Shown here: positions 26,255 through 55,900 of the stretch, one piece after another
How the letters are laid out: each line of letters begins with the position of its first letter
How positions within the stretch are numbered: the stretch's first letter is position 1
Origin: an uncultured bacterium
GTDB lineage: Bacteria; Omnitrophota; Omnitrophia; Omnitrophales; Aquincolibacteriaceae
Assembly: GCA_964422635.1 (NCBI GenBank)
Contig: CAYRBY010000003.1
Location: forward strand, 1 to 57,016
DNA: 57,016 bases
Direction: 5' to 3'
Program-made: the position numbers and the translations under genes
The notes under the pieces: model-generated
The model's database searches: none
What the model was told of the DNA's origin: nothing
What the model saw: only the letters and a program-made list of their open reading frames with translations

Positions 26255-26791
26255 TTAAGAACGGACTTTTTCTTCCTGAATCCAGCGATCAACCGCAGAC
26301 TTGCTGAAAAACCAGCCGTTACCTTCCTGCTTTGCGGGAATCTTTCTCTTGTTGGCCCACTCTTCAACAATGCGCGACTCGACTTCCAGGTATTGGGCAA
26401 CATCTTTCAGCGTCATGGTAACATCCGAGGCTTCTCCGCCTGTCGGATTTCCATTCAACATCGAAATCTGCCCTTCCAAAATGGCGCCTTCGGTCACACT
26501 GAGGCGAGGTGTACGAATATTGCCGCGGATCACGGCAGGAGCAATTACAGAAACACTTTGAGTGGCATCCACATCACCTGTCACTTTACCGGCAATGATA
26601 ATGCGGTCACCGTTGATATTGGCTTTAACTTTCGCGTTTTCACCAATCGTCAAATTGCCGCGGGCATCGAGCTTCCCTTCAAAACTACCGTTGATACGGA
26701 GGTTGACAGGGTCCTTGAATGAAATGGTGCCCTGCATACTGGCATCAACATCGAGGATTTTTTCTTCCACCTGTTCGTTTTTCTTGGCCAT
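26255..26791 (-). CDS. bactofilin-domain protein fused to a C-terminal excisionase-type HTH
   Basis: Bactofilin beta-helix repeats (INGSFEGKLDARGNLTIGENAKVKANINGDRIIIAGKVTGDVDATQSVSVIAPAVIRGNIRTPRLSVTEGAILEGQI), followed by MTLKDVAQYLEVESRIVEEWANKRKIPAKQEGNGWFFSKSAVDRWI. Confidence 0.7.
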   Translation of the reverse strand: MAKKNEQVEEKILDVDASMQGTISFKDPVNLRINGSFEGKLDARGNLTIGENAKVKANINGDRIIIAGKVTGDVDATQSVSVIAPAVIRGNIRTPRLSVTEGAILEGQISMLNGNPTGGEASDVTMTLKDVAQYLEVESRIVEEWANKRKIPAKQEGNGWFFSKSAVDRWIQEEKVRS

Positions 26792-31040: not shown

Positions 31041-31062
31041 TTCCATTTTTTGGGGATCCATT

Positions 31063-42100: not shown

Positions 42101-45100
42101 CTTCAAACCTTTCAAGCTCAGCCTGCTTTTTGCGATCGCGCTCTGCCTGCAGGTCTGACGAGTCATAAATAAAATCATACGTATCAAACTCATCGCGTAT
42201 TCCTTCCAAAAGGGACCTTTGCTCTTCAAAAACCTTGATCAGTCTTGAGCCAACAAGGGTATCTCCGCCCCGTTTTCTGCTGTCTTCCACCATTTTCTTC
42301 AGACGATCCAAGCCGGGCTCGATTTTATTTTTGATAACCTGATTGATGGCGAATTGGGCGCGCTTTCCCTGCTCAACGATTTTCAGAATATCCGGAAGCA
42401 AATCGCTAATCAGCATGACGCGTCGGCCCGTCGCAATCTTCCGCTCCAAATCAATAAGCTGCTTGACCCTGTCCTTTTCGTCTTCGCCGTAATCCTCCGG
42501 TGAAATGTGCAGGCCATAAGGGAGCCTGAGAATGATTTCAAAAACTTTCACCAGAACTTGATCTCTCTCCCGGTTAATAAAAAGTTTTTTCCGCTCCTCT
42601 TCATCAAGACCGCTTTCGACATAAACAAGCTCTTCACGGTTTTCCAAGGCTGGAAGAAGTCTTTTGTCAACAATCCCAGAAGCCATGGTTAAATCCAGAT
42701 CATCCCCGGATTCTTCTTTGGCGGCAGCCAGCATCTCATCTTTCACGGTCCGCAGCGCTATCTCCGCCTTGATCTCCTGGGTCCTGATCAAGTCCATAGC
42801 CCGGCGGATCATAAGCTCTACAACATCCAGGGCTTGCGGGAGATACCCTTTCTCCTGAAGCTCACCCATGACCTGCATCCAAAGAGTGTCGAGGGTTTCA
42901 AGCTCATTGTGTATTTTTTGGACAACAACCTTGTCATCATCATAAGGTCTCTTCAGAGAAGTATTCATTTGCCGCTGGGAAGGACGCCAAAAAACCAATT
43001 CACCAGCCTCTACTTTCAGCATTTCCGGAGAAACGCCGTTAAGGCGGACATTCTGAGGGGACTTCGTTTCCTCCGATCGCAGCTCGGAGCGAACTGTATA
43101 GGCTTTTGAACTCTTTGTGGGATTCAACGGGATTTCAGGAAGGCCTTCCGCGCGGCGCGTAAACCGCAGCCCTGCAAAAAAGCTGTGCGGAACCTGCTTA
43201 CCATTAATCGTAATACCGTAAATTTCGTAATCCGGGCTGAGAGATTCAAAAAACGACTTTATATCGACCTTCTTCTGCTGTTCATCCTTAATGGACATGA
43301 TGTCCAGGTCCGTGATCAGTTCCCCGCCGACTTTAAGATGTCTCGAAAGCATGCCCACCGTGCCCGGAATGTTGCGCATATATTCCATGACGGCCTGCGT
43401 CATCACGATCACGTCAAAAGATTCGTTTTCAAAAGCTCCCAGGTTTTGCTCTAAATCCATAAGGGCAAATCTCTGCCGAACGCTGACCATAATCGTTCCG
43501 GCTTCACCCGTGTCGATGCCAAGAATCTGTGAAAGCCCCTCGTTTGAAAACAACAGGTCCTCAAACGCGCCGGAATAAATCTCTGCCTGATCGCCATACG
43601 TTCTTATCAGTTCGGCAGGAACCACGCCGCGGCCCACGCCAAGAAGGAGCACTCGAGGTTTCTGGCCGCTGGCAATACGATCCGTAATGGCCTTGGTCAC
43701 GCGGCCTCCATGCATTTCATCCAGAAAGGCAAAGTTGCGGATGACATTCTCTTCAAGGCCATATGGATTAGGCTGTTCTTCGGCCCGCAATTCAGAACGG
43801 CGCGAGTGATAAACGTTGGAATTGGCCGTAGCATCAAGAGGTATTTCATTGATCTGCTCGAAGGAACGCGTAAAGTGCAAACCCGCAAGAAGGCTCGTGG
43901 GGGCCTGTTTGCCTTCCAGCGTAATCCCGTAAATCTCATAATTGGGTCCAAGGGATTCAAAGAAACTTTTCACATCGACGCTTTTGCCTGTCACAGAATC
44001 CTTGATTGAGAAAATGTCGAAGTCCGTCATGAATTCGCCTTTCAAGGCGAGCTTGGCGGAAAGCCGGTCCACAAGCCGTGGCTTGTTCTCTATGTACTGC
44101 ATCACAGTCTGAGTGATGATAATGACGTCAAAGGACTGAGAATCAAAAGCTCCGAGATCCTTCTCTGCGTTCGAGATGACATAGCGGTCACGTATTGTTT
44201 TTATGATGGCCTCTGTTTCCGCCGCGCTTACCTTGCCCTCCCAGAACGATGCCAACTGTTCGGGTGAAAAAAGAAGATCCTCTTTGGCGGTTGAGTAAAG
44301 CTCAATTTTATCTCCGTATTCACGCAGCATGTCCGCAGGTGCCACGCCGCGTCCGATACCAATCAAGAGCACGCGGGGTTTATCCCCAGCAGCGATCCGG
44401 CGGTTAAGGGACGCCCGGATACGGCCTCCGTGCATTTCATCAACCTGAGCAAAACCACGCGTTACGTTTTCTTCGGATTTATAAGGATTGTCTTCTTCGG
44501 ATCTCAATTCCGAGCGGTTCCGGGGGCGAAGATTGTTGAGCGTATCTATCCGGTCAGTGAGATAAGCATAATCTGTTGTAAAGGCCGCTTCCGAGGGACG
44601 AATCACCCCAGCTCCAAGCTGAAGCAAAGAAAGGTATTGGGGAATCCTGTCATGCCAGTCGTTTTGTGCATTCGCGGCACGATTCGATAATGTCTTAAGA
44701 AGACTGGGGTCACGCGCAGCCGCATCAAAAGCAGCCGCGAGGGTTCCTCTGAGAGCCGCTCCGGTAAAATCGGTAAACAGAAAGCCGTTGCCATGGTCAG
44801 GGTGATCAAAGTAATTGATCAGCGTTGCGGCAATGCCTCCCACATTTCTTGCCACCACAGGCGTTCCTGAAGCCAATGATTCCAGTTGCGTAATACCGCC
44901 CGGCTCATAACGGGAAGGCATTAGAAAGAACCGGCTTGCCAGCATGACCTGCAGGGTTGTGGCGCCAGGGATAAAGGTATACTCACCGCGGATTCTGCCG
45001 GGGTATCTCCCCTCAAGTTCACGGGTCAAATCCCTCAGACGTTCTGCCGTCCCATCCCCCTCAGCAACAGGTCCACCCAGGAATATCTGCACTTCCGGGT

Positions 45101-48100
45101 TCATTTTGAGAAGACTTTCCAACACAGTCACTCCATCTTCCGTTTCCGTCAGGAGCTGGATTCCCTTCTGCTCCGCAACGCGTCCAATCATTGAGAGAAA
45201 AATCGCATTGGGGTTCTCGGTGAAACCAAAATCTTTTTGGGTTTTAACAAGTGCCGAATTTTTATAGTCCCAAAGGTTTTTGAGGAACTCTTCGTCTGAA
45301 TAGGCATCCATCAAGGGAGGCAATTCGAGCGCCTTACGGGCCTCTTCACCTTTTTTCCAGAACGTCTTTCTCGCCGAGGCTTCATCAATGCCGTTGCTGA
45401 TTCCAAACAAAATGTCTTTCAGCGGATTCAGGATATTATCAAGACCCTCCCCCGCCTCCCGCGTCAGCATTTGCTCGGCGTAGGGGCGGCTGACAGTAAG
45501 AATCGAACGGTTTACGTGTTCCATGGCGCTTGAAGTAATGTTGAGGAACCGGTCATCGTTGGGATCGGCAACATCTTTATAAAAATCGTGGTTGAGTCCC
45601 AGAAGCGGCCAAAGATCCAACCCATACTGATTCGTAAAGATTCGGCCCTGATAATCGCGTCCGTAATTGTGAATCATGTGAACCGTCCCCACATCCTTGA
45701 GCAGCGGATCTTGCGAGTATCGGGGGTCCCGCTGAAGAAATGTCGGAATTAAACCGGTAACCCAGTCATTGGAGATGATGAGCTGCGGATCGACACCGAG
45801 CGCCCTGTTTTGAACTACTTCAAGAGCGGCACGGGATAGGAAGACAGCGCGCCGTAATTCTTCCGAAGACGGCACTTTCGCATACAGTTTGTCGGCAAGC
45901 CGGGGATGTCTCAGAAAGAGGTATCGGACCCCTTCAGCTTTGGCCTCATACACACGGCTTTGGACCGTTCTTTGAAAGGTGCGGATTTTTTCATCCGTCA
46001 AGCCGGTCATGTGTGTACCCGAATCATACATCGGGCCAAATGTCATTCCGATCTCGGCGACAGGATCAGCTTTAATGGGCACCCTTTCACCGCTCTCGGT
46101 CATGAACCCCTTTTCAATCAAAGCAGACGCGGATTCATGTTTCTTGCCCTGATTATCTTCATACAGCGGCGTAATGACCGTAACGGATACGCCGCTCTCT
46201 GACAAAGCCTTGGCAAGGCCTTCTATAACTTTGGCCAGCCCTCCGGCAATCGCATGAGGACCTTCCGGAGCTACAAAAACAATTTCTCCAATACCGAGAG
46301 TTTCCAGGGCGTGCAAAGCGGGCAGCGCTCTTTCTTTGAAGAACGGATTCCACACTTTGCTGTCTTCCTTAAGACGGGTATGAATCTTTGAGAGCGCCTC
46401 GCGGAAACGGGGAACATCCTTAACTGCCTCGTAAACAATCTTTCCCATCCCTCGCATTTCCTCTTCGGTGACAAGGCGGTGAATCGTTGAGAGAAAACTA
46501 TCGTAGGGATTCGCATCAATAAGGCTCTGGCGGATTTCCTGAATGGCTTCCTGCTTTTTAAGATTACGCCGGAGGTCTTCAAGGACTGTTTTTGGCGGGA
46601 GATCGATCCTCATGACAGCATCATCACTCCGATTTTTTCCCTGCCACACCCGTTCACCTGTTTCGCGGTTTTGGGCATAGGCCGTCACGCCAAACTCACC
46701 GATCCGTCCGGGTTGAATCACTTTGCTTGCCTTGTAAATTCCTCCTCCGAGATCCTCAATGTCCCAATTAAGGATTTCGTGGTCCGTCCAATCCAACGGA
46801 CCTTGCGTATATTCTCCCCAATGAAAAAACATCTCTGATTTTTCAAGCGTTGCGGCGTCTGTCCTGAAAGTAATTTCAACCTTGGCGGAATCTCCGGACA
46901 CAGTCACAACAGGACGGGATGTAAATTGAATCGCTTCGGAATACGGTTTCTCGGACGAGCGCAGCTCTGAGCGTATTCCCATCTCTTTGTCAAAAACTTC
47001 AATGAGAATACGCCACCGCTCAAACTCACGGACCGAACTCTGTTTCAGACTCGTCCGGACCTCCTCTGCAAATCCCAGATCCACTTGCCGGAGAAGTTTC
47101 GTCATCGCCCCCTGAACATCAACATAGCTGCCCGTTTCAAAAGTGCGGAGCGCGTCATCAATATCAGACTGTACGGCCAATGCGTATCCGGGTGTATAGC
47201 TCAAGGTTTGGGCAGCCGGATCAAAGCGAATGTCGCCCGAATCATCTAAAGAAACAGCCTCTCTGAAAGTCGACAGAATCTCAGGGTCGCCAAGAACGTT
47301 TTGAAAAGTGTCCAGCAGCTCACTGTTTTCAGTTATCTCTGCCAAACCGGCCACTTTTGCCCGTTTCTCGGCCGGCAGCTTCCAGGTAAAGTCCCCCTCC
47401 GAGATCCGGCGGACAAGGAGCTTTAAAGTCTTAACATCTTCAGAGGTTTCGATATCCAATTTTCCAATCGCATTCAGAAACGCACGATCAAGACTCTCTG
47501 TCTCTGTGCTTGTTCTGAGCTCCGAACGCTGAGCTGGTTTCACGTTTGCAGAGCCGGCAAGGGCAAGACTGCTGTAGAATGTATCCCGGCTCTTTTCAAC
47601 AGCCTGAATGACATATTCATCTTTCGGATCCAGGTAGGCGGAACCTCTCAAATAACTGACAATAGAAGCATTCGCTTTCGTAAGGCTCAAAATCTCGGCG
47701 TCCGCAGGGCCGCGCAAATCAACATATACGGGCTTCATCCATTTTTTCAGCAAATCAATGGCTGAAAATTTCAAACCAACCTTTTGTCCTGGCCTTAACA
47801 CCTCTCTGAGCCTTGAACGAAACGGGAAAGAAACTCCGTTTTCCGTTTCCGGAGATTTCCTCCATGTTTCGGCAGGCTCAAGATCGCCCGTTCTTGAATC
47901 TTTAGAATAAAGCCAGGGTTCGGTGAGATAAGAATCTTCGTCGCCATAACCAAAAGTACCGCTGGGATTGTCATAAAGGAAATCAAAAAAGCCATTTTGA
48001 ACAAGCACTAAATTCGCCAGATCATAATCATAAGCCTCAATGGAAACATTCCAGCTCTCTGCCCAGACCTGAAAAGATCCAATTCCTTCTTTTGACAGAA

Positions 48101-51100
48101 TTTCCTGATGGTGCGATTCGTAATATTTTTTTAGCCCATAATAAACAATCATTCCGAGCGTATAAGGCTCTTCACCGCTTGAAACACCGATGCTTTTTAA
48201 GGTAACGGCTTTGTCCCCTGCCCGCATTTTCTCTTCAATGAGCTGGTCCAGAAACTTTATAGTTGCAATCTGATCAAATCGGAAAAAAGCGGTTGTTGCC
48301 CTTCCAAAATCAGCAGTTTTCGAAAAAGCCCGGAGGACGTCAGCTGCGAAGGCGCTGATTTCGGCAGGTTTAGCGGACAGATTTTCTTCCAGGTAGGCTC
48401 TGAAAGAGGATTGTCCGGAAGCCTGGATACGTGCCTGGATCATACCTTCAAAGAACTGTGCATACTCATAAGGAAGTTTATCCGCGCGGATTGCCTGAAA
48501 AACACTGGCGGCCTGCGCACTTTTCTCCGGCGAAAGCTTTTCATACACGAGCTTCAGAAATTGCTGTTTTAGCGCCGTCTCATCGAAAACCCCCGTCAGC
48601 AGAGTTTGGAGCTCGGACCGGAAAGAATCGGTCTCAACACTCCGGAGTTCCGAACGTGCCGCATAGGTAAGGAGAAGAATCTCTCGGGAACTGTCATAAA
48701 GTTTCCCGGAAAAGATTGCGCCTTCGATCCCCGGAGAAAGGATGGCCTCATGAAGTTCTGCATCTGTTATCTGATCAATAGAAGATACATGCAGGACTGC
48801 GATAACCGGTTGATCTGAAGCATCACGGCCTGCGATCACGGCATGCTGCATACCCTGATGCTCAAAGAAGCCACGGTACTGAAGGTCTGAAATACTAACG
48901 CCTGCGATTTGTGCGCTGCGGTTATCTTCCGCCAGACGGATAAGGTAGGCCGCAGATCCAAACGCTAATAAATTTTCGTACATGGCCCGGCGCCACAAAA
49001 GCTTGGCATCTGAAGATTCCGTTGTTCTCAAAACAACGTCTTCTCCCAGAACCGGCACGCCTGCAAGAATATGCCCGGAGGATATAACCAGCGGCGCAGA
49101 GAGTTTCAGCTGATAAGCAATCCCATGTTCGGATTTCACCATAAGCGGTGCCTGCGGCGAAGTGCTTTCATTTGTAATTCCGTAAAGAAAACTATCTGAG
49201 ACCTCAAGATTGAAAGCTCCACGCATGCCCGAAACAACGGAATTCTTAATAACACCTGTCGAACCGGGCAAAACTTCAGAAGCTGTAATGATGGAATTCT
49301 GGACCTCAACCTGCGTCCCGGGCAATGTTCCTGTAAATAGTTCCGGCACTCCCCAGAACTGCCGCGCCAAACGACCTTCGGCTGTATCCTGAAGAAGAAC
49401 AAGGATGTTCCGTCTGAAGATTCCTTCCGTCGTACCTTCCTCAATTCCTACATTCCCGAAATCCCACCAAAGAGACTTGGCTCCAGCATTAATGACCTTC
49501 ATGAAGGGCTGAGAAGAGTTTTTCCGTGAGCTCAGATAAAGGCTGAGTACGCGCTCCGTAAACTCCGGCTGATCAAGCCTTTCTTTCGCAAGAAATTTTT
49601 TCAAAGATTCTGCATTCTTGAATTGCGAAACATCAGCGGCAGCATTCTTAAGAACAAACTCCAAGCGAGTGAGAGGGATCCACCAATCCCCGTCGGTATC
49701 AGCCCGGTTCTTTGACTGTTCCAGGGGATTTTCCTCACTCAGCTCCTGCCGGTAAGAACGCATCATGCTGTCCCAGAAACGGCGGTCCACCGTAAAAGAT
49801 CCCAGGCTTTTGCCCATTCCGGAAACCTGGCTGTGCGCAGCTATGAACTCCTGGGCTTCCTGCACTGTTTTTGGTTTCTGCATGAGCCGTGCAGCCGTCC
49901 ACACCCCCGGCCCCTGCGCTTCAAGTGCAATCAACCCGTATTTATTGATAATGTCTTCGTACGGAAACTGCCCCACCAATGCCAAAATCTCGACAGGAGA
50001 ATCGCTCGGACTTTGAAGCTCCTGGAGCGGCACCGTCGGCACAAACACCTGATCTCCCCAAAACACCATGACGCGGCCAGGACGGTTCTTGGCAAAAATA
50101 GCGCTTTGAAAAATGGTCGACTCAAGAAGCGTCATCGGCACTTGACTTCCTTCTTTGTTCAGATAGCGGGGCATTGTGATACGGCTTTTAGAACCGTATT
50201 CGGAACCCGTAATCGGCCAAACACGGCTTCCAAAACCTGCCGTATGATAAATCGCGATGGTGGCTTCCCTTCCCTTTTCACGCCTAACTTTGTCCATCAG
50301 TGATTTCCAGCTGATCCCAGCCTGTTCTTTACTTTCCTGCCGGGCGCTTTGGTAGGCCAGAAGACTGCCCAGTCCGTTTCCGGGAGGAGAACCAGCACCG
50401 TAACTTTCCAGGACTGAAAACACCGTCGTATCTTTTCCGATAACCTGTCCGCGCATGCTTTCAAGTCTCTGCTTCCAATAACGCCGTTCGCTTTCCTGCG
50501 CCGAAACGACGATCACAATGTCGGGACCTTCGGAGTTTTCAACAGCGTTGTACATGGCCTGAATGTTTTGCTGTGCAAACGCCTGCTCCTCCAAACTCAG
50601 TCCGGCAGAGTCCGTGGCTCTCAGCTCTGAACGCGGCAACGCACCAGCTTGCGTTTGCTGAGGGACTTTTGCGCTGTCAGGAAGTGACACGGCCGAAGGC
50701 TTCCATTTAAACTCTGAAGAGGCGGAATCCGGCCGCCGGCCTTCCACCGCCCGGCTAAAACCAATATCTGACGAGGACAAAACCGCGCTGATGGTAGAGT
50801 TATTCGGAAGCAAGGCTTCAAGGTTCGGTTTTGCAGAAAATGTAAGAGCCGGCGATGAGGCGGTTTCAGGAACCTCGACATCCAAGACCTGGGATAACAC
50901 GGGATGGCTTTTAAACGCTGCTCTGACACCATTCAAAGAGTCGGAAGTCAGTCCCTTTTCCTTCATCCACAAAGGCAGTGCGACCTCGACAGCTTCTTTA
51001 AAAAGAAGCGCTTCCTGTTTGGTCAGAAAAGGGTTGGCATTTTTGAAATAGATTTTAAGGTCTGCGTTTTCTCCTCCCATGACCCGGGCATATCTTTCGC

Positions 51101-52802
51101 CGCGGTCAATCTCTCCAACGCGGGGCATCACAGAGGCAAAGGACAACTTTCTTTCTCTCAGGACATCCTGAATTCCCTGAGAGTGAAACCCTCCGCTGAC
51201 AATCACAAGAACAGGCCGCGAATCCGGGGTTTCTTTTTTCGAAAACACTTCGCGGCCAGGCTTGTTCATTTCCTCCCGCACAAAGCTCAGGGCATTTGAA
51301 ACCAAAGCTTCGTCACGCTCCCGGGCCTGCTGGTAAAAGAAAAATGCACGCCGGGTCAGCTCGGTCAATTTCGCAAGATCATCTTGATCTAAAACACCTT
51401 TGAGCAGCACCTCAAGATCCGGCTTTTGAGAATCCAGGAGCTCAAACTCCTGACGCGTCATCTCAAGATACAAAAGTTTCTGGAGGCGCTCATAATTGCG
51501 CACCCTCTCGACCCATTCCTTTTCTGCCGGGCCTGCAGCCAAGCTGTTGAGAATACCGTTTTCAAGCCGGTCCATTTCATCGAACAACCCTTGGACATCC
51601 AGTTCAGACTGAAAAACAACAGCCTTCATGGCAGACTTAAAAGACTGGGCTGTCTTTTCGTCTGCGGCTTTAAAGATCCCCTTGATCTCAAGTTCTTCGA
51701 GAATCCGTCTTGGAGAAAGTTCCTGCTTTTCAGCAGCTGGGTATCTCGATAGATCTTCTGCACTTAAAAAACCCTGGCGGTTCGCCAGATCTACCAGCGC
51801 AGAAAGAATTTCTTTGTTCTGAGATGAGCTCGAAAGAATATTCAGGATCTGCTTCCAGCTTTGAACAACTGCTTCGCTGCGAAGATTCGCTTTTACTTTC
51901 TTGAGTTGAAGCAATCTTGCAAAGTTGGGGAATCGCAGCTGCTCTATAGTGTCATCCAGATCGACATGCAAAGTCTGAAGGCTTTGGGCCTTGAGAGCAT
52001 CTGCGTAAACGCTCAAATCGCCGCTGCCTGCGTCTTTCCGGCGTATTCCAAATTGCCCATGCCTGCGCTTTTCCCGCTCCTTATAGAATCGCACCAGTTC
52101 AGGATTCAGTGTCTGCGTCATCGCGCTTTGCAGAGCCTCTTTGCCCTTTTCAAGGACCTCGGATACCCAGGGACGGACATTAAGCAAAGTCCGGTATGAT
52201 TCTAAATTCTCGCGGTAAAGCGGTGTTGTCTCCACCCCTTGAATTTTTACAGCTCGTAAGGTTCCAGTCTCCCGTGTCTCTGTTTGCTTCTGATACTGAG
52301 ACCACGCAAAAAGTTCAACCCCGGAGACTTCCCCCTTTTCGAACAAATCCTGGACAACTGCTTCGCCGGCGGCGGAAAGCTCCGGGAAAAAGTCAAAATA
52401 CTCAGGATGCAAATTGCCGCGGGCACCTTCTACAGCGATATAAAGATCAGAGTTGCGGGCTGCTTGGTTTTCAGCGAGAAACGTAAGGATTTCCTGAATG
52501 TGTTTTTGAGCATCGGGGTTAGCGTGAGCATCTTGGAGATGAATGACCCTGGGAGTTTCCGCACTTCCAGCTCCCTCTTCAATACTCTGAACAGCGCCCG
52601 CTGTTTCAGGCAGATTCTTGAGAAGTGCTGACAAAGCCCCTTTTTCTTCATAGGCAGGGCTGCGCGAAACCGCTGCGGGCATATCACCGGCATACGCTTG
52701 ACGGACAGTCCCCGGCCCCGTTGTCTCAGAACAGAGAAAGACAATGAGCAAAGGCCAAGCAATGAGCCGGGCCCACCCGGTTTTGATTTTGAACAAATTC
52801 AT
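39135..52802 (-). CDS. giant modular protein (4,555 aa) with eight RSELR-marked module junctions
   Basis: Single uninterrupted frame. The ATG at 52802 is preceded by GGAG. See the sub-features for modules. Confidence 0.9.
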   Translation of the reverse strand: MNLFKIKTGWARLIAWPLLIVFLCSETTGPGTVRQAYAGDMPAAVSRSPAYEEKGALSALLKNLPETAGAVQSIEEGAGSAETPRVIHLQDAHANPDAQKHIQEILTFLAENQAARNSDLYIAVEGARGNLHPEYFDFFPELSAAGEAVVQDLFEKGEVSGVELFAWSQYQKQTETRETGTLRAVKIQGVETTPLYRENLESYRTLLNVRPWVSEVLEKGKEALQSAMTQTLNPELVRFYKEREKRRHGQFGIRRKDAGSGDLSVYADALKAQSLQTLHVDLDDTIEQLRFPNFARLLQLKKVKANLRSEAVVQSWKQILNILSSSSQNKEILSALVDLANRQGFLSAEDLSRYPAAEKQELSPRRILEELEIKGIFKAADEKTAQSFKSAMKAVVFQSELDVQGLFDEMDRLENGILNSLAAGPAEKEWVERVRNYERLQKLLYLEMTRQEFELLDSQKPDLEVLLKGVLDQDDLAKLTELTRRAFFFYQQARERDEALVSNALSFVREEMNKPGREVFSKKETPDSRPVLVIVSGGFHSQGIQDVLRERKLSFASVMPRVGEIDRGERYARVMGGENADLKIYFKNANPFLTKQEALLFKEAVEVALPLWMKEKGLTSDSLNGVRAAFKSHPVLSQVLDVEVPETASSPALTFSAKPNLEALLPNNSTISAVLSSSDIGFSRAVEGRRPDSASSEFKWKPSAVSLPDSAKVPQQTQAGALPRSELRATDSAGLSLEEQAFAQQNIQAMYNAVENSEGPDIVIVVSAQESERRYWKQRLESMRGQVIGKDTTVFSVLESYGAGSPPGNGLGSLLAYQSARQESKEQAGISWKSLMDKVRREKGREATIAIYHTAGFGSRVWPITGSEYGSKSRITMPRYLNKEGSQVPMTLLESTIFQSAIFAKNRPGRVMVFWGDQVFVPTVPLQELQSPSDSPVEILALVGQFPYEDIINKYGLIALEAQGPGVWTAARLMQKPKTVQEAQEFIAAHSQVSGMGKSLGSFTVDRRFWDSMMRSYRQELSEENPLEQSKNRADTDGDWWIPLTRLEFVLKNAAADVSQFKNAESLKKFLAKERLDQPEFTERVLSLYLSSRKNSSQPFMKVINAGAKSLWWDFGNVGIEEGTTEGIFRRNILVLLQDTAEGRLARQFWGVPELFTGTLPGTQVEVQNSIITASEVLPGSTGVIKNSVVSGMRGAFNLEVSDSFLYGITNESTSPQAPLMVKSEHGIAYQLKLSAPLVISSGHILAGVPVLGEDVVLRTTESSDAKLLWRRAMYENLLAFGSAAYLIRLAEDNRSAQIAGVSISDLQYRGFFEHQGMQHAVIAGRDASDQPVIAVLHVSSIDQITDAELHEAILSPGIEGAIFSGKLYDSSREILLLTYAARSELRSVETDSFRSELQTLLTGVFDETALKQQFLKLVYEKLSPEKSAQAASVFQAIRADKLPYEYAQFFEGMIQARIQASGQSSFRAYLEENLSAKPAEISAFAADVLRAFSKTADFGRATTAFFRFDQIATIKFLDQLIEEKMRAGDKAVTLKSIGVSSGEEPYTLGMIVYYGLKKYYESHHQEILSKEGIGSFQVWAESWNVSIEAYDYDLANLVLVQNGFFDFLYDNPSGTFGYGDEDSYLTEPWLYSKDSRTGDLEPAETWRKSPETENGVSFPFRSRLREVLRPGQKVGLKFSAIDLLKKWMKPVYVDLRGPADAEILSLTKANASIVSYLRGSAYLDPKDEYVIQAVEKSRDTFYSSLALAGSANVKPAQRSELRTSTETESLDRAFLNAIGKLDIETSEDVKTLKLLVRRISEGDFTWKLPAEKRAKVAGLAEITENSELLDTFQNVLGDPEILSTFREAVSLDDSGDIRFDPAAQTLSYTPGYALAVQSDIDDALRTFETGSYVDVQGAMTKLLRQVDLGFAEEVRTSLKQSSVREFERWRILIEVFDKEMGIRSELRSSEKPYSEAIQFTSRPVVTVSGDSAKVEITFRTDAATLEKSEMFFHWGEYTQGPLDWTDHEILNWDIEDLGGGIYKASKVIQPGRIGEFGVTAYAQNRETGERVWQGKNRSDDAVMRIDLPPKTVLEDLRRNLKKQEAIQEIRQSLIDANPYDSFLSTIHRLVTEEEMRGMGKIVYEAVKDVPRFREALSKIHTRLKEDSKVWNPFFKERALPALHALETLGIGEIVFVAPEGPHAIAGGLAKVIEGLAKALSESGVSVTVITPLYEDNQGKKHESASALIEKGFMTESGERVPIKADPVAEIGMTFGPMYDSGTHMTGLTDEKIRTFQRTVQSRVYEAKAEGVRYLFLRHPRLADKLYAKVPSSEELRRAVFLSRAALEVVQNRALGVDPQLIISNDWVTGLIPTFLQRDPRYSQDPLLKDVGTVHMIHNYGRDYQGRIFTNQYGLDLWPLLGLNHDFYKDVADPNDDRFLNITSSAMEHVNRSILTVSRPYAEQMLTREAGEGLDNILNPLKDILFGISNGIDEASARKTFWKKGEEARKALELPPLMDAYSDEEFLKNLWDYKNSALVKTQKDFGFTENPNAIFLSMIGRVAEQKGIQLLTETEDGVTVLESLLKMNPEVQIFLGGPVAEGDGTAERLRDLTRELEGRYPGRIRGEYTFIPGATTLQVMLASRFFLMPSRYEPGGITQLESLASGTPVVARNVGGIAATLINYFDHPDHGNGFLFTDFTGAALRGTLAAAFDAAARDPSLLKTLSNRAANAQNDWHDRIPQYLSLLQLGAGVIRPSEAAFTTDYAYLTDRIDTLNNLRPRNRSELRSEEDNPYKSEENVTRGFAQVDEMHGGRIRASLNRRIAAGDKPRVLLIGIGRGVAPADMLREYGDKIELYSTAKEDLLFSPEQLASFWEGKVSAAETEAIIKTIRDRYVISNAEKDLGAFDSQSFDVIIITQTVMQYIENKPRLVDRLSAKLALKGEFMTDFDIFSIKDSVTGKSVDVKSFFESLGPNYEIYGITLEGKQAPTSLLAGLHFTRSFEQINEIPLDATANSNVYHSRRSELRAEEQPNPYGLEENVIRNFAFLDEMHGGRVTKAITDRIASGQKPRVLLLGVGRGVVPAELIRTYGDQAEIYSGAFEDLLFSNEGLSQILGIDTGEAGTIMVSVRQRFALMDLEQNLGAFENESFDVIVMTQAVMEYMRNIPGTVGMLSRHLKVGGELITDLDIMSIKDEQQKKVDIKSFFESLSPDYEIYGITINGKQVPHSFFAGLRFTRRAEGLPEIPLNPTKSSKAYTVRSELRSEETKSPQNVRLNGVSPEMLKVEAGELVFWRPSQRQMNTSLKRPYDDDKVVVQKIHNELETLDTLWMQVMGELQEKGYLPQALDVVELMIRRAMDLIRTQEIKAEIALRTVKDEMLAAAKEESGDDLDLTMASGIVDKRLLPALENREELVYVESGLDEEERKKLFINRERDQVLVKVFEIILRLPYGLHISPEDYGEDEKDRVKQLIDLERKIATGRRVMLISDLLPDILKIVEQGKRAQFAINQVIKNKIEPGLDRLKKMVEDSRKRGGDTLVGSRLIKVFEEQRSLLEGIRDEFDTYDFIYDSSDLQAERDRKKQAELERFEAVYKDTLNFFPAPSERLRTFIAEFRTQVMYEIRERGRTLDYGTAKFFSQKGSEQYRDLPDEQLDFLMRFYNVSQYGIVKRGGDKNLIVFAEKIRHEADFSELMMRNKGRGKVVSIATLKRFAPDDAAGRVPHWFIFSKDQGIVPIEALDFEDRKMDFRELKEGDFVLVDGKKGIAVVNPSAEAQRDMIERGKVYKYLDAYFLPRVSLPALVNGRPFYFWADESRLDYLKRDGDQPRFQKFGARGIGLLRLEQLMGEMDRAGIEFDEMRLSLAIEEMLLPFSDPEAPLTVRLYDVQGDKRPKFFVQGKTEEQIESILKTHSNIRFYLDERGEFRNQREFGKMQIKAIYRAYLRARKDNLQILLPNLLKVEEVGALKKLFEEARKELIRELEEEALVQTEAAVVRRHGWVTDIDALEAEGLEKGLDWFRKQLLSKAEMKPHEELFGKESDADFSKVAGSDFGDKITQRLSKIRFGYMFEEVSAVEQRMDIMKAVLEQHQDSEAKPFFGIGTNDLQKSVLESRDEGSDEMNKLHPGLVKAIADLEGSARELGLHLTVEGQWGGSARMLFAAMALEIYHGRKMQLVAPTNKIPELLEMIRMTDSQDLEHVFDLGTSYKPASMKMLIDRMEAGDLPELDEMNLVATMLQDRIEAKIVASADFQRFRTLKERQELVGRSELRLAATPDISSTQEWKRTLSETVSPRFALRSPGLFGPDVQASVVNVSRDLGGVYASKQIADRLPAQVAVDDDREGAAELPREQAAQRWVERQVMDDAGLFERAGVSDPALQKMMSEISGLPVRSPEDQGAAGLSAVVHVQMPKVPENLAGFLPVLAVVASVNGALHLNMASLNEEGAGKFEKQILSLAAGKGIQLKRGQLQVRGGMGASVFATVPHSKLAAAEHHALLGEEDVFSSFPKRRGLNLFSLDPAAMSDPGLFASTVITVLQAMALGKQPEDYFHVLNPRSLFPQNFQAVVQAVSTYLAAQARIAAAA
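39138..40073 (-). other. C-terminal tail domain shared by the three large proteins (aa 4244-4555)
   Basis: Starts RSELR-LAATPD. Ends ...VLQAMALGKQPEDYFHVLNPRSLFPQNFQAVVQAVSTYLAAQARIAAAA, which aligns by eye with the tails at 10798-11859 and 52961-53857. Confidence 0.6.
40074..40088 (-). other. RSELR junction motif (4,555-aa protein, copy 8, aa 4239-4243)
   Basis: Coding strand cgt tcg gag ctt cgc. Context ELVG-RSELR-LAATPD. Confidence 0.95.
40089..43076 (-). other. PEP-utilizing-enzyme-like module (aa 3243-4238; Enzyme I / PPDK / PEP synthase family)
   Basis: Swivel-domain-like GDFVLVDGKKGIAVVNPS. TIM-barrel motifs FGARGIGLLRLEQLM and FFGIGTNDLQKSV. I could not find the canonical phospho-His motif (G-G-x-T-S-H) or the catalytic Cys context. 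Confidence 0.55.
43077..43091 (-). other. RSELR junction motif (4,555-aa protein, copy 7, aa 3238-3242)
   Basis: Coding strand cgc tcc gag ctg cga. Context AYTV-RSELR-SEETKSPQ. Confidence 0.95.
43092..43784 (-). other. class-I methyltransferase-like module, second copy (aa 3007-3237)
   Basis: PRVLLLGVGRGVVPAEL (a GxGxG-type motif I) and FDVIVMTQAVMEYM. This is a paralogue of the preceding module. Confidence 0.45.
43785..43799 (-). other. RSELR junction motif (4,555-aa protein, copy 6, aa 3002-3006)
   Basis: Coding strand cgt tct gaa ttg cgg. Context YHSR-RSELR-AEEQPNPY. Confidence 0.95.
43800..44501 (-). other. class-I methyltransferase-like module, first copy (aa 2768-3001)
   Basis: PRVLLIGIGRGVAPADM and FDVIIITQTVMQYI. 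It begins SEEDNPY...EENV.R.FA..DEMHGGR, as its paralogue does. Confidence 0.45.
44502..44516 (-). other. RSELR junction motif (4,555-aa protein, copy 5, aa 2763-2767)
   Basis: Coding strand cgc tcg gaa ttg aga. Context RPRN-RSELR-SEEDNPY. Confidence 0.95.
44517..46958 (-). other. glycogen/starch-synthase-like GT5 module with an N-terminal beta-sandwich-like region (aa 1949-2762)
   Basis: IVFVAPEGPHAIAGGLAKVIEGLAKALSESGVSVTVITPLYE (the GlgA KxGGL-type motif region), SMIGRVAEQKGIQLL, and PSRYEPGGITQLESLASGTPVVARNVGGI. The N-terminal ~120 aa (EITFRTD...MFFHWGEY...IYKASKV) resemble a carbohydrate-binding-type sandwich, with low confidence. Confidence 0.7.
46959..46973 (-). other. RSELR junction motif (4,555-aa protein, copy 4, aa 1944-1948)
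   Basis: Coding strand cgc tca gag ctg cgc. Context EMGI-RSELR-SSEKPY. Confidence 0.95.
46974..47513 (-). other. small module of unknown function (aa 1764-1943)
   Basis: Bounded by RSELR copies 3 and 4. I recognise no motif. Confidence 0.4.
47514..47528 (-). other. RSELR junction motif (4,555-aa protein, copy 3, aa 1759-1763)
   Basis: Coding strand cgt tcg gag ctc aga. Context KPAQ-RSELR-TSTETE. Confidence 0.95.
47529..48641 (-). other. CheR-like SAM-dependent methyltransferase module (aa 1388-1758)
   Basis: LKSIGVSSGEEPYTLGMIVY matches the CheR-type xGCSxGEEPYSxAM motif. It is followed by SIEAYDYDLANLVLVQNGFF, compare atDid...l..A..G.Y. Confidence 0.55.
48642..48656 (-). other. RSELR junction motif (4,555-aa protein, copy 2, aa 1383-1387)
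   Basis: Coding strand cgt tcg gaa ctc cgg. Context TYAA-RSELR-SVETDS. A degenerate echo, RSELQ, lies 8 aa downstream. Confidence 0.95.
48657..50618 (-). other. NDP-sugar pyrophosphorylase-like module (fucokinase / GDP-fucose pyrophosphorylase N-domain-like) plus beta-helix-like region (aa 729-1382)
   Basis: DIVIVVSAQESERRYWKQRL...GNGLGSLLAY and IYHTAGFGSRVWPITGSEYGSKSRITMP resemble the motifs I recall for that family (IVLTA..Y..QL ... GSGGATL ... HsGG.SkRlP). WWDFGNVG is followed by short repeats such as VQNSIITASEVLPGSTGVIKNSVVSG. Confidence 0.4.
50619..50633 (-). other. RSELR junction motif (4,555-aa protein, copy 1, aa 724-728)
   Basis: Coding strand cgt tca gag ctg aga. Context GALP-RSELR-ATDSAG. 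Confidence 0.95.
50634..52802 (-). other. signal/anchor plus N-terminal domain shared with the 3,019-aa protein (aa 1-723)
   Basis: Hydrophobic N-terminus WARLIAWPLLIVFLCSE with an AYA-G site. IHLQDAHANPDAQKHIQEILTFLAEN (QDAH at nt 52524-52535), VEGARG, and VIVSGGFHSQGIQDVLRERKLSFASVMPRV (GGFH at nt 51183-51194). Confidence 0.7.
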
Positions 52803-52957: not shown

Positions 52958-55900
52958 TTAAGCTTGGGTCGCCAGATGGTTGATCACCTGAATCATCCGG
53001 GAAACATTCTCAACAAGTTCATCCAGATTAATATCGAATTTTTTAAGAAGATCGTCCATTCGAACAACATCATATTGATCACTCAGCTGCCGCAAAAGCG
53101 CTGAGGCCACAAGAATAGCCGTATTTCGATCCAGGCGCTCGTTAAAAATTCTCTGCATACGCGGAATATAGCCGAGCTTGTCCAGCCAATCCATGCGTTC
53201 GCCTACAACAGCCGAATCCAGCTCCTTGTTTTCAGAGTAGAGCTGCTTCACGGCCCGGACGTAACTGGCAGGGCTTCCATCTGTAGATACGAACTTGAAT
53301 TGTTCGATCACCCTGGAAGCAGAAATCTTGAGCTCGTCCTGACGGGCAGCGACGCGTGAGGCCTGAGACCTGGCCTGCTGAGGCGAACCATTCACAAGAA
53401 AAGCAAAAAGGTTTCCTCTGTCTGCTGCCGCCAAAACAACAGCTACGCGGAAAAGTTCATCACTGGATTGATCCTGCTCTAAAGGCAGGACAATCTGGCC
53501 CGGAGTTTTTGCGTGATCCAGGAGCCAGCTATATTTTCCCAAAGCAGCGCGGGCCTCTTTGAGAACGACGGGTTCCTCTTCAGCAGTCTCTGGCGGAGAG
53601 GAAAGCCTCAGGCGAACGTATTCCAAAGAAGCAGGATCTTCCGAACGGATCAGTTCATCGGAGACAAACGCTGCAGCAACCGCTCCAGCCACCTGATCTT
53701 TAGGGATAAAATCAGGGTGATGTTCCAAGAATTGCCCCACATCAACCGACTCAGGAGCCGGAAGAGATAAGACTTTTGCGTGGAAATCTGCAGTCGTTGC
53801 CGGATTGACTCCATCGGCCTGAACAAGACTTTCAAAGACAGAACTTGTTTCTGCGAGCCGAAGCTCCGAACGGATCGAACCCAAAGGAGGTGTCCGGCGT
53901 CCGGGGCCGATAAGATTAATATTTAAATCTGCTGTCAGCTTGGGCGCCCGGGAATAGAGCGTGTTCCGGGTATCAATCAAGAGCTGCCCTGAAAATTTTG
54001 CATAATCCAGCTTTTTGTATTCATCCCAATCCGTAATCAGAAGGGCGGCATCTGCAGGCTTGCTGCCGGCAGGAGTTTCATAAGACAGAGCCTCTTCAGC
54101 TTGATTGACAAACACAACTCTGTTTGTCGCTTCATATCTTTCCTTGAAAAATATTTCACGGAAGTAAAACTCTTTGATAACCGAAAGATCCAGACGCTTA
54201 TCTCTGAGCAGATTTTGAAAAGATTGAATCAGGGGGCGGGTCAAAAACTGCGCACTCTGGTCATCCTCCCACGGATCCTTCGGGCTGCGCGCATCAAAAT
54301 AGTTTCCGTAGCTTTTCCGAAAAGCCTCTTCACTAAGAGTCAGTTTATGGTCCGCAACCATTCTTTCCCTTAATTGCCTTTGAAAAACCGGATTAAAACG
54401 AAGGCGGGCAAATAGCTGCCGCTGCGCCGATTGGTCCTCTAAAGCACCCGATTTCAGATAGCCATCAAAGGCCTTTTCAAAATCGCCGTCATACTTGAAG
54501 TGCTTATAAAGTTCGCCAAGATAATTTGAGATAATCGCCTCTTTGCGCGGCGCGTCGGGTGTTCTGAAAATAGGGTCATCAATTCTGACCTGCTGGACTT
54601 CAAGTTTTAGAAGTTCATAAAGTACATGCGCACTCGGCGCTTCTCTCATATCGTCTGTTTCAGCTTTAAAGGCCATTCCAAGAAGCGCGATCACCTTGCC
54701 CTGGAGAATCGCTTTGGTTCCAATCGCCTTGGCGCCGCGGAGCTGCTCAATAAGCCTCTTAACATCCGCTGTTTTAAAATATTGATTCAATTGGTCCGCA
54801 AGAACAATCATGAGAAGCGAACGGCCTGCTTGTTCGTCTGAAAGATAATTCACGGCGCGGACGTCCTTAGGGAAACAGGAACCGCCGTAACCGCAGCCCT
54901 CATTCAGGAAGGCGTTGCCGCCGACCCGTTGATCTTTCCGCAGGCGGGGAGCAATCTCACGGAAGTTCGAGCCCTCGATTTCAAGAGCAGCATCCTGCGC
55001 CATCACATTTGCAGTTGTAATGGAAACAGCCAGAAAAGCGTTCGCAGCGTACTTGATCAATGTGGATGTGGCAGTATCAGTCAACAGAACCGTGTGCGGG
55101 GTGCGCAGCATGAGCGGGTACCAAAGCTCCAACAGGTCTTTCTCGACCCGTTTCCGGGCCTCCGGAGGCATAGACGAATAAAAGCCCAAAACGGTCCGGT
55201 CAAGATCGGTCGTAATATCTTTAATGGCCTGACCTTCTCTTAAAAATTCAGGGTTACTGACGAACCCGTAGTCAATCCCGGGCTTAAGCCCAAACTCTTG
55301 CTCCAGGATTTTAACAGCATCTTCAAAAACCCTCGGCGTAACCGTCGATTTAATTACGATTGTCTTGAAGGCCGCTTCCCTTCCGGACTCAGCGGCCTGC
55401 CGCTTGATAATCGCCGCGATATCACGCATGGCTCCGTTAATATAAGAGGGGTCTTGGGCACCGTTGTCTTGCTGGGGTGTCCCGACGGCCAGATAAACGA
55501 TGCTCGCTTCGCGAACACCTTTTTCGTATTCTTCAGGCGATGCCTGAAACCGAATCCTTCCTGACTCCTTACCTTTGATAATCAGATCGCGCAATCCGGG
55601 CTCATGAATAGGGACTTCCGTCGCTTGCGAGTTAAGCGCATCCATGGCCCGCTTTCTCTGCGGAATGTCCAAAACAGTGACATCATTTCCAAGATCCGCA
55701 AGATTCGCGCCCGTAGTCAGACCCACATAGCCTCCGCCGATCACAGCAACCCTTTTCTGAGTGACTGGAACAGCCTTCGCCTCACGCTGATCCAGTTCAG
55801 GCGTTCCAAAGATGTCTTCCAGTTTCTTCTTGCGCGCGTCATCGGTTTCCAAAGATAAAAGATATGCCTCATATTCTCCAATGGCTTTTGCCGCAAGCTG

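Follow-up and report, generated by a model that had tools for sequence, protein, structure and literature searches.

According to the literature, it is an open question whether giant Omnitrophota proteins function as single polypeptides or are processed into fragments. Published descriptions reported N-terminal regions without identifiable domains except for C39 and S8 peptidases, called the cleavage points unknown, and proposed that the proteins act on prey surfaces. The window analyzed here, the whole 57,016-nucleotide stretch of one contig from an uncultured bacterium of this phylum, encodes two large multi-domain proteins, A and B, which begin with similar domains. The locus raises the question of what this domain is, and whether it could be the activity that cuts the proteins it heads. 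Neither the N-terminal domain nor the R-S-E-x-R junction motif considered below is mentioned in the published descriptions of Omnitrophota giant proteins.

Translation of the minus strand showed that protein A (4,555 aa, 39135-52802) carries HLQDAHANPDAQKHIQEILTFLAEN with QDAH at aa 90-93, VEGARG (E125), and VIVSGGFHSQGIQDVLRERKLSFASVMPRV with GGFH at aa 537-540. Protein B (3,019 aa, 10795-19854, minus strand) carries FLQDAHAVKDAQRSIQNVIAYLEAN (aa 92-95), LEGSEG (E123) and VVVAGGFHTQGFEEELLKRGYSYAVISPRV (aa 470-473). All the motifs quoted in the original prediction were found in these two translations, and the likeness of the two N-terminal domains that it had noted by eye was confirmed by BLASTP (A aa 13-588 versus B aa 25-520, 27% identity, E = 2e-35), a sequence similarity showing homology far above chance. 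The motif spacing of about 440 aa given there agreed with the His-to-His distance of 447 aa in protein A, the corresponding distance being 378 aa in protein B. The span 50634-52802 corresponds exactly to aa 1-723 of protein A and ends at the first RSELR. In the six-frame translation of the window, a profile search detected the domain exactly twice, in protein A (E = 2.5e-196) and protein B (E = 7e-165). Look-ups of proteins A and B by exact sequence, aimed at extending the flanking DNA, matched no record. The features of the locus are listed in Table 1.

Table 1. Features of proteins A, B and C in the window.
Feature	Position	Strand	Basis
Protein A, predicted Sec-type signal peptide, aa 1-38	52689..52802	minus	read from sequence
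Protein A, shared N-terminal domain, aa 55-620	50943..52640	minus	AlphaFold2 model and family profile match
Protein A, motif 1, Q90-D91-A92-H93, directly after the beta-strand at aa 85-91	52524..52535	minus	conservation and model
Protein A, V124-E125-G126-A127, end of the next beta-strand; E125 and G126 invariant	52422..52433	minus	conservation and model
Protein A, G189-V-E191-T, end of the third strand; E191 invariant, G189 99%	52227..52238	minus	conservation and model
Protein A, F489-Y490-x5-R496-D497, long helix re-entering the core	51312..51338	minus	conservation
Protein A, motif 2, G537-G538-F539-H540, strand-to-helix junction; four residues invariant	51183..51194	minus	conservation and model
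Protein A, first RSELR, aa 724-728, about 100 aa past the domain end; putative first cleavage site	50619..50633	minus	sequence
Protein A, remainder, eight modules; RSELR at aa 1383, 1759, 1944, 2763, 3002, 3238, 4239	39135..50618	minus	
Protein B, paralogous N-terminal domain, aa 55-550	18205..19692	minus	AlphaFold2 model and profile match
Protein B, QDAH	19570-19581	minus	sequence
Protein B, LEGS	19480-19491	minus	sequence
Protein B, GLED	19324-19335	minus	sequence
Protein B, FY..A.ERD	18517-18543	minus	sequence
Protein B, GGFH	18436-18447	minus	sequence
Protein B, remainder; RSELR at aa 794, 1006, 1524, 1859, 2128, 2661	10795..17475	minus	
Protein C, third family member directly upstream of A; N-terminus beyond the window	52958..57010	minus	sequence

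The N-terminus of protein A has basic residues (K5, K7 and R12), a hydrophobic stretch LIAWPLLIVFLC and A-Y-A preceding G39, and the same n/h/c layout with AxA sites was seen in the N-termini of the family. With a profile built from six sequences, the domain was found in 9,446 clusters at 50% identity, all without annotation. It was N-terminal, behind a Sec-type signal peptide, in all of the 152 members examined, proteins of 487 to 7,839 aa, and began at aa 3-127 in the 150 matches listed. The genome scan found several copies of the domain per genome, and all the named genomes having it belonged to Omnitrophota. The predicted signal peptide would imply export, which is odd beside cargo of a cytoplasmic type needing SAM, NAD and nucleotide sugars.

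Thirteen residues, namely H93, E125, G126, G161, E191, F489, Y490, R496, G537, G538, F539, H540 and P560, were identical in 146 of 146 members, so that the two His and the Glu singled out in the original prediction are invariant in the homologues. Within the first motif, Q90 was conserved at 99%, and position 91 was D in 80 sequences and N in 61; position 497, following the invariant R496, was D or E in every member (146/146). The domain has a His after the first core strand, a Glu ending the second core strand, Arg-Asp/Asn before motif 2 and a second motif of the GxxH type, all of them features of the Tiki/TraB/ChaN/erythromycin-esterase superfamily. The presence of Arg-Asp/Asn in the helix before motif 2 is a feature of the superfamily, which we confirmed here for Ere and YbaP. 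The acidic residue or Gly expected before the first His (GxxH, G-E-x-x-H, or E-x-H in RRSP) is not found in the domain; as the original prediction had pointed out, the first motif is QDAH rather than GxxH, the Gly being absent and a Gln occupying the position of Ere E43 in the profile alignment. E191 is a candidate for the second acidic catalytic residue.

AlphaFold2 models of the domains of protein A (m00520c2d9c6c; pLDDT 90.3, pTM 0.87) and protein B (m65aef0f688ca; pLDDT 83.4) predicted an alpha/beta core made up of the N- and C-terminal parts of the domain, with a helical insertion of roughly 280-340 aa between them. The modelled core consists of beta-alpha-beta units with 6-7 strands shared between the two parts, and the invariant residues sit at strand ends in the model of protein A. 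In the superfamily, which includes HopBA1 (5T09), Bcr135 (3B55) and ChaN (2G5G), the known fold has helices flanking a central, mainly parallel beta-sheet (PMC6254334). Foldseek searches with the two independent models against a library of about 350,000 chains gave Tiki-superfamily chains (Bcr135, ChaN, EreC and HopBA1) as the PDB matches of highest probability, all with E > 0.1. The first search detected 3b55 (Bcr135) with a probability of 0.38 and 2g5g (ChaN) with 0.38 at rank 5, along with 6xcs/6xcq (EreC), and the second detected 5t09 (HopBA1) with 0.35 and 6xcs, an entry titled as the EreC H289N mutant, with 0.23. The E-values were at least 0.09 overall; the large helical insertion accounts for the superfamily matches remaining at E = 0.25 (the best member) or above, with TM-scores of 0.1-0.26. 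Chance helical proteins dominated the match lists, and the comparison with viral structures gave nothing informative. None of the profile or structure searches placed the domain in an unrelated fold.

The N-terminal half of the domain was aligned by hhalign with the alignment of the erythromycin-esterase (Ere) family at P = 0.0062, which put H93, E125 and G189-E191 on the invariant H46, E74 and G131-D133 of EreB. For the C-terminal half, an alignment at P = 0.048 was obtained with the Ere template restricted post hoc to its C-region, placing R496-D497 on R259-D260 and H540 on the invariant H288; with the whole Ere profile, the wrong region was aligned (P = 0.33). When the insertion was deleted from the sequences, the only recurrent weak Pfam matches were PF04187 (ChaN, 'Tiki superfamily'; E = 0.005-0.006, 13-17 bits versus a gathering threshold of about 27) and PF18950 (DUF5694). 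The latter, which we take to be in the same clan as PF04187, matched 4 of 27 sequences in a colinear manner from the EG motif to GGFH, with 14-16 bits versus a cut-off of about 27. No Pfam model passed its threshold for the domain, and direct Pfam and NCBIfam scans of N-terminal segments yielded nothing meaningful. Sequence-profile searches of the PDB with alignments of 6, 42 and 27 sequences returned chance helical matches, with superfamily members absent. As for TraB/GumN, hhalign against E. coli YbaP, alone or with 98 close homologues (a narrow template profile, Neff 2.3), gave P = 0.2-0.7, and PF01963 was absent from all the Pfam match lists. The superfamily membership suggested in the original prediction was thus upheld in part: the weak matches to Ere, ChaN, Bcr135 and HopBA1 converged, but no single test was conventionally significant and the TraB/GumN profile was silent. 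These matches, each of them weak when taken singly, suggest that the domain is a very divergent Tiki/TraB/ChaN/erythromycin-esterase hydrolase and may form a new, highly divergent branch of this known superfamily. We infer a hydrolytic activity, for which a peptide would be the substrate.

The pentapeptide RSELR occurs eight times in protein A, six times in protein B and once in protein C, as compared with an expectation of about 0.01 per protein, and the 15 sites bracket Pfam domains and lie between enzyme modules. Since the codons for RSELR vary synonymously, selection acts on the peptide and not on the DNA, and a DNA-level repeat was ruled out. An autoproteolysis site with Ser as the nucleophile was ruled out as well, by the presence of Ala in place of Ser at 20% of the sites. 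Within the 152 family proteins, the more general R[SA]ExR was observed 778 times versus 24.6 expected, about 32-fold, with a median spacing of 257 aa. Only 10 of the 778 sites lie within the N-terminal domain; the first site is found at a median of aa 713, and among members with a length of 1,500 aa or more, at least two sites are present in 96 of 104. The density was 2.35 per 1,000 aa in the family proteins versus 0.16 in upstream neighbor ORFs, and none was found in the 22 other ORFs of the window (8,567 aa). In this lineage, position x is always Leu, even across distant paralogs, and elsewhere it is loose; for this reason a correlation of the variable x with the domain cannot separate action in cis from that in trans. 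The replacement of Ser by Ala at one site in five, together with the loose x, fits a recognition sequence and also a non-proteolytic docking motif. In the literature, 'RSELR' turned up only as the name of a piece of software, and no paper linking Omnitrophota with polyproteins or with an R-S-E-x-R motif was found in the searchable literature.

Among the modules of protein A are a GT5/GT1 glycogen-synthase-like module, a PEP-utilising module and two tandem methyltransferase modules, each with RSELR at its start; the C-terminal module ends in ...IAAAA. The methyltransferase of protein B (aa 834-966) lies within the module of aa 794-1005. In protein C, which ends in ...HLATQA, there are UDP-glucose dehydrogenase domains and a single RSELR (aa 1047); the ortholog of this protein, P0123 (2,271 aa, 71% identity), has the N-terminal domain. 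'Empty' members also exist, such as P0002 (1,087 aa), which comprise nothing but the N-terminal domain, a single K/RSExR and the C-terminal module. Of 155 proteins, 124 keep the tail [A/S/Q]-A-COOH at the C-terminus. The conserved C-terminal module might equally be the processing activity.

From this co-occurrence of domain and motif, the N-terminal domain would be the best candidate for cutting proteins A and B at the repeated Arg-Ser-Glu-x-Arg junctions. The original prediction that the domain could recognise RSELR is supported insofar as the motif is specific to domain-bearing proteins, and the putative role in cleavage is suggested by this co-occurrence. Our preferred reading, plausible but tentative, is that the Sec signal peptide is followed by a very divergent Tiki-type hydrolase domain, which would serve as the processing peptidase built into an Omnitrophota polyprotein. 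The proposed active site would comprise H93 (Q-D/N-A-H), E125, E191, R496 followed by D/E, and H540 (G-G-F-H) at the C-terminal ends of the core strands, where a His-Glu pair may activate water by analogy with the Ere enzymes and the RRSP endopeptidase, and the helical insertion interrupting the alpha/beta core might act as a 'lid'. The linkers cut by the domain would be the R-[S/A]-E-x-R segments between enzyme modules, which read RSELR in this lineage. Cutting would probably start in cis, at the site some 100 aa past the domain, and the freed domain could then act in cis or in trans to release the individual enzymes. Cleavage at RSExR is putative, as are the bond cut and the choice between cis and trans action. 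On a broader scale, it is conceivable, although we consider it rather doubtful, that Omnitrophota use true cellular polyproteins phylum-wide in thousands of gene families. Such polyproteins would be Sec-targeted, with a Tiki-like autoprocessing peptidase at the N-terminus and a C-terminal module with [A/S/Q]-A-COOH at its end as fixed parts, and between them an exchangeable set of up to dozens of ordinary metabolic enzymes, released at R-[S/A]-E-x-R.

The same observations could be explained by a Tiki/Ere-type hydrolase with another substrate, such as an ester or peptide in the cell envelope or in a host or prey cell, or a small molecule, with RSExR being cut by another protease or serving uncut as a flexible, charged docking or spacer segment. 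Such a domain is possible, if somewhat unlikely. It agrees with the best profile match being to esterases of the Ere family and with the signal peptide, which would put the domain outside the cytoplasm; the domain-motif association is moreover correlative, and the substrates of the superfamily are very varied, some members being non-proteolytic (ChaN binds haem and PMT is inactive; PMC6254334). However, it leaves unexplained why each polyprotein has its own N-terminal copy and why the motif is nearly confined to the carriers of the domain, and A, B and C yielded no other protease domain.

We regard as unlikely a non-catalytic leader that functions, together with the C-terminal module, in export, tethering, folding or assembly, the His, Glu and Tyr residues binding metal or haem as in ChaN. 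The constant position of the domain directly behind the signal peptide, the existence of the 'empty' members, the retention of the C-terminal tail in most of the proteins and the haem-binding lipoprotein ChaN being among the best structural and Pfam matches all speak for a leader. Nevertheless, the invariant set follows the order and register of the catalytic signature of active Ere enzymes, His ... Glu ... Arg-Asp ... His, and the corresponding residues are 100% conserved in the domain family. Still less probable is a coincidental resemblance, in which a new fold of alpha/beta and helical parts would mimic the signature by short motifs (xxxH, EG and GGFH). The E-values are all non-significant, the Foldseek lists consist mostly of chance helical proteins, and strand ends in Rossmann-like folds often carry short motifs. 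Coincidence would nonetheless have to account for four subfamilies of the superfamily ranking at the top by probability in two independent model searches of some 350,000 chains, for an unbiased profile alignment setting three invariant positions on three invariant ones (P = 0.006), and for the lowest of the weak Pfam E-values obtained with the insert-deleted sequences belonging to PF04187, which Pfam itself labels as Tiki superfamily.

The proposed processing peptidase was compared with known systems. The Ere family (EreA/EreB/EreC and Bcr135/Bcr136; PF05139) shares with the domain the order and register of the conserved residues, as seen in the profile alignments, and a helical region between the core halves; EreC and Bcr135 were among the best Foldseek matches. 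On the other hand, the domain has Q-D/N-A-H and G-G-F-H in place of G-E-x-S-H and A-H-N-A-H, its helical insertion is much larger, it is secretion-tagged and heads multi-kilodalton polyproteins, the sequence score is not significant and a macrolide substrate is implausible. ChaN (PF04187) differs in being a small haem-binding lipoprotein. Tiki1/2, TraB/PrgY and GumN (PF01963) share two xxxH motifs, a Glu and Arg-Asn/Asp in the same order, as in E. coli YbaP (GSIH ... VEAD ... QRN ... GALH), and Tiki is a protease (PMC6254334). RRSP (DUF5) of MARTX toxins is a sequence-specific endopeptidase of the Tiki fold with a 2His/2Glu site, and resembles the present case as a Tiki-fold domain that cuts a specific acidic-rich peptide and is located inside a giant secreted multi-domain bacterial protein (PMC6254334). 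Unlike the activity proposed here, RRSP cuts host Ras/Rap1 and not its own polyprotein; it was not among the Foldseek matches listed, and the domain has Gln or Asp/Asn for the first acidic residue of the motif. The processing of MARTX is performed by a separate cysteine protease domain.

In viral and toxin polyproteins (picornavirus 3C; the cysteine protease domain of MARTX and large clostridial toxins), modules are likewise separated by a short recurring motif with one protease domain in the chain, a candidate protease in the present case. The protease folds are unrelated, however, and the modules here are ordinary metabolic enzymes of a cellular bacterium, the candidate protease is always N-terminal after a signal peptide, and cleavage is putative. 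The published Omnitrophota giant proteins ('archaeovorins' and multi-enzyme clusters) have in common with the proteins described here the phylum, predicted signal peptides and a content of sugar-metabolism, PEP/pyruvate dikinase-like and methyltransferase domains, but they exceed 20 kaa, as compared with 2-8 kaa here. We could not find a bacterial polyprotein architecture with such a leading domain described in the searchable literature.

The finding pairs a conserved, catalytic-looking domain with a precise junction motif in a concrete form that can be tested, and the motif by itself is enough to divide giant proteins computationally into modules, which can then be used in structure prediction and annotation. 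Should the domain not be a peptidase, a family of more than 9,000 clusters always leading such proteins would still need explaining. If it is the processing peptidase, it would extend the Tiki/Ere superfamily by a new specificity and a new biological role, would provide a compact pair of sequence-specific protease and site that is possibly useful as a tool, and would establish enzyme polyproteins as a normal bacterial strategy. If polyproteins are indeed used phylum-wide, Omnitrophota would have adopted for their proteins a strategy of expression and delivery that is known elsewhere in viruses and a few toxins but not in the core metabolism of bacteria.

The gene content of the window was that of an ordinary bacterial chromosome (trehalose synthesis, alpha-amylase, ClpB, aminotransferases, an ABC transporter, Sua5 and others), together with three giant minus-strand proteins, A, B and C. 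The Pfam matches scattered along these proteins were ordinary enzymes, namely a GT5/GT1 glycogen-synthase-like unit, SAM methyltransferases and a PEP-utilising domain in A, a methyltransferase in B and a UDP-glucose dehydrogenase in C. Over all of its visible length, C, located directly upstream of A in a tandem arrangement, shared 71% identity with residues 926-2271 of P0123, which is a 2,271-aa protein carrying the domain that heads A and B (N-domain). Judged from this identity, P0123 is the ortholog of C, and C belongs to the family as well, so that the window has three members, two in tandem. Elsewhere, a 401-aa ORF without Pfam match (9216-10421, minus strand) was located immediately downstream of B, and in a small ORF (26255-26791, minus strand) a bactofilin domain was followed by a C-terminal HTH_17 DNA-binding domain, an unusual fusion. 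Two adjacent plus-strand ORFs without Pfam match (31063-32496 and 32493-34160) were found just downstream of ABC_tran / ABC_tran_2 genes, and the AT skew was strongly negative (-0.22 to -0.26) at 30001-34000, across both ORFs.

Coordinates of the giant ORFs and their modules (forward-strand numbering)
Feature	Position	Strand	Remark
Giant ORF A	39135-52802	-	4,555 aa
Giant ORF B	10795-19854	-	3,019 aa
Giant ORF C	52958-57010	-	continues past window end, N-terminus outside
Sec-type signal peptide (predicted), A	52689-52802	-	by eye
Sec-type signal peptide (predicted), B	19708-19824	-	by eye
Tandem paralogous methyltransferase module, A	43092-43799	-	aa 3002-3237
Tandem paralogous methyltransferase module, A	43800-44516	-	aa 2763-3001
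C-terminal module, A	39135-40088	-	
C-terminal module, B	10795-11874	-	
C-terminal module, C	52958-53872	-	

The motif strings on which the original prediction based a Tiki/TraB/GumN/ChaN-type hydrolase were each found in the translations of A and B, and the span 50634-52802 corresponded exactly to aa 1-723 of A. The alignment of the two N-termini, previously made by eye, was confirmed by BLASTP (A aa 13-588 versus B aa 25-520, 27% identity, E = 2e-35). The family profile detected two copies only, those of A and B, in the six-frame translation of the window. No Pfam or NCBIfam model matched the N-domain, and a word-indexed search returned four relatives only, one labelled Candidatus Omnitrophica. 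The exhaustive profile search collected 9,446 clusters at 50% identity (E <= 1e-3), 6,192 of them at E <= 1e-30; by these sequence matches, the N-domain defines a very large unannotated family. It started within the first ~130 residues in 150 of the 150 matches listed, in proteins of 487-7,839 aa. A one-genome-per-species scan gave 204 confirmed loci, including five copies from one MAG, and among the 80 kept, the loci naming a lineage were Omnitrophota/Omnitrophica except for one 'PVC group' and one 'Planctomycetia' label. Thirteen positions (H93, E125, G126, G161, E191, F489, Y490, R496, G537, G538, F539, H540 and P560 in A) were identical in 146/146 aligned sequences, among them the His and Glu residues for which variation among homologues would have refuted the original prediction. 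Q90 and Q99 were 98-99% conserved, and position 91 was D or N and position 497 D or E.

The AlphaFold2 model of A aa 55-620, made from a 42-sequence alignment, was confident (pLDDT 90.3, pTM 0.87). It showed an alpha/beta core in two parts, with strands at aa 85-91, 120-124 and 185-190 in the N-terminal part and at 531-537 and 555-560 in the C-terminal part, and a helical region of some 280-340 residues in between. The invariant residues were located at the C-terminal strand ends, the usual active-site place in such folds, or at the starts of the next helices, and are predicted from the model to be clustered in space. The B model was also usable (pLDDT 83.4). Foldseek analysis of both models against about 350,000 PDB chains gave no significant match because long helical proteins dominated the lists. 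The highest-probability matches included 3b55 (Bcr135, 0.38, rank 3), 2g5g (ChaN, 0.38, rank 5) and EreC 6xcs/6xcq (ranks 13-14) for A, and 5t09 (HopBA1, 0.35) and 6xcs (EreC, 0.23) for B. As the Tiki superfamily is not known to supply more than a few dozen of these chains, it is very unlikely, by our own estimate rather than by computation, that four of its members topped two independent searches by chance. PMT, HopBA1 (5T09), Bcr135 (3B55) and ChaN (2G5G) are placed in this superfamily, whose members have in common a core built on a parallel sheet and a catalytic motif of the 2His/2Glu type (PMC6254334).

The Pfam scan of single family members gave one weak match, to PF04187 ('Haem-binding uptake, Tiki superfamily, ChaN', E = 0.006). 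When the helical insertion was deleted, PF18950 (DUF5694) matched 4 of 27 sequences, with the EG motif through GGFH in colinear order, PF18185 (STALD/SLOG) matched two and PF04187 one (E = 0.005), while no family other than PF18950 and PF18185 matched more than one of the 27. For hhalign we used 120 Ere-family homologues (37-99% identity), collected after the EreB sequence had proved 100% identical to an annotated ere(B) gene of a plasmid. The N-terminal half of the N-domain aligned with the Ere family at P = 0.0062 in the register H93 = H46, E125 = E74 and G189/E191 = G131/D133, and these Ere residues were invariant in the Ere alignment, too. Aligned with the complete Ere profile, the C-terminal half missed its expected position (P = 0.33). 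When the template was cut to Ere residues 240-330, R496-D497 paired with R259-D260, and H540 paired with H288 (P = 0.048); this alignment counts less because the restriction was a post hoc step. Comparison with a TraB/GumN profile from E. coli YbaP, a narrow one, gave no signal, and motif 1 departed from the canonical signature, being Q-D/N-A-H instead of G-E-x-x-H with Gln where Ere has Glu.

The N-domain is probably a member of the Tiki superfamily, a reading that rests on convergence and not on one significant score. The original prediction was partly supported, its superfamily assignment being probable from the motifs, their invariance and the convergent fold and profile matches; no score was significant and the TraB/GumN profile was silent. 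A coincidental resemblance is conceivable but very unlikely. A Tiki-like fold with the catalytic motifs as assigned is probable, and among known families, Ere esterases and ChaN-like proteins of the Tiki superfamily come closest.

RSELR, the repeated junction motif, occurred 8 times in A, 6 times in B and once in C, where about 0.01 was expected per protein, and its codons varied synonymously between sites, indicating selection on the peptide. The sites were located between Pfam domains, with every enzyme within one RSELR-delimited segment. Each of the two tandem methyltransferase modules of A started at RSELR and continued with an acidic stretch that was similar in both (..EE.NPY..EENV.R.FA..DEMH), so that the unit that was duplicated is the RSELR-delimited one. 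In 152 family proteins, the top over-represented pentapeptides beyond the N-domain were all R-S-E-x-R, followed by R-A-E-x-R, and R[SA]ExR was observed 778 times against 24.6 expected. Only 10 of the 778 sites fell within the N-domain, though it makes up about one fifth of the residues; the first site was at a median of aa 713, the median spacing was 257 aa, and at least two sites were present in 96 of the 104 members of >=1,500 aa. The flanks showed a mild bias only, toward small residues before and acidic residues after the motif. As controls, the other 22 ORFs of the window (8,567 aa) had none, and upstream neighbour ORFs of 49 related loci had 0.16 sites/1,000 aa versus 2.35 in family proteins. 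The x position was fixed as Leu throughout the window lineage, which covers A and B, distant paralogs of each other, as well as P0043, P0050, P0056 and P0119; it was loose (V/M/A/S/T/I) in most other members; RAExR or RPExR was the main form in a few. Ala replaced Ser at 20% of the sites, which argues against self-cleavage with Ser as the nucleophile.

The C-terminal ends were similar in A (...ARIAAAA), B (...QAVASAA) and C (...NHLATQA), and an amphipathic helix with a terminal [A/S/Q]-A-COOH behind it was seen in 124 of 155 family proteins. The sequences of the last module (about 300 aa) formed two or three profile-linked subfamilies. This conserved end may act as a signal for sorting, anchoring or degradation, and might even provide the processing activity. 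Short members such as P0002, P0003 and P0004 (about 865-1,140 aa) were free of enzyme cargo and had just the N-domain, a single K/RSExR-like site and the C-terminal module, suggesting a conserved frame that receives inserted cargo modules. The family showed a fixed architecture of signal peptide, N-domain, ~100-aa linker, modules with R-[S/A]-E-x-R in front of every one, and last module with [A/S/Q]-A-COOH.

The N-termini of the family, assigned by eye, resembled signal peptides of the Sec type: a basic n-region was followed by a hydrophobic core and then by an AxA site, predicted at ...RQAYA|G in A and ...PRAFA|Q in B; further hydrophobic segments were few in these two proteins. Glycogen synthase, SAM methyltransferases, a PEP-utilising domain and UDP-glucose dehydrogenase, all cytoplasm-type cargo, were found behind such peptides. 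The combination of a predicted signal peptide with enzymes dependent on cytoplasmic cofactors is a topological paradox, already noted in published work for larger Omnitrophota proteins.

We infer that the N-domain would work as a His/Glu hydrolase, recognising R-S-E-x-R as a charged element and cutting the chain at it. The two Arg and the Glu of the motif could be recognised through the numerous acidic and basic residues that are invariant in the N-domain. As each polyprotein has its own N-domain copy with the first site within reach, the initial cut may occur in cis at that site, after which the freed N-domain could work in trans. RRSP, a TIKI member described as a metal-independent, sequence-specific endopeptidase (PMC6254334), is a precedent for a Tiki-fold domain with this kind of activity inside a giant bacterial protein. 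A putative processing role is plausible, while the complete chain of fold, hydrolase activity and R-S-E-x-R as substrate is tentative, its chances being somewhat below even. A hydrolase acting on a different substrate is somewhat less likely than this chain. A non-catalytic export or assembly leader, to be set beside the signal peptide and the N-terminal position, is unlikely, with the putative catalytic residues invariant throughout the family.

For the processing reading, the closest systems in working principle are viral polyproteins and autoprocessing toxins. A preprint on Omnitrophota giant proteins describes N-terminal regions generally without identifiable domains and cleavage points as unknown, and no mention of the N-domain or the R-[S/A]-E-x-R motif was found in the searchable literature on these proteins. 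The polyprotein architecture headed by the N-domain may be more novel than the domain itself.
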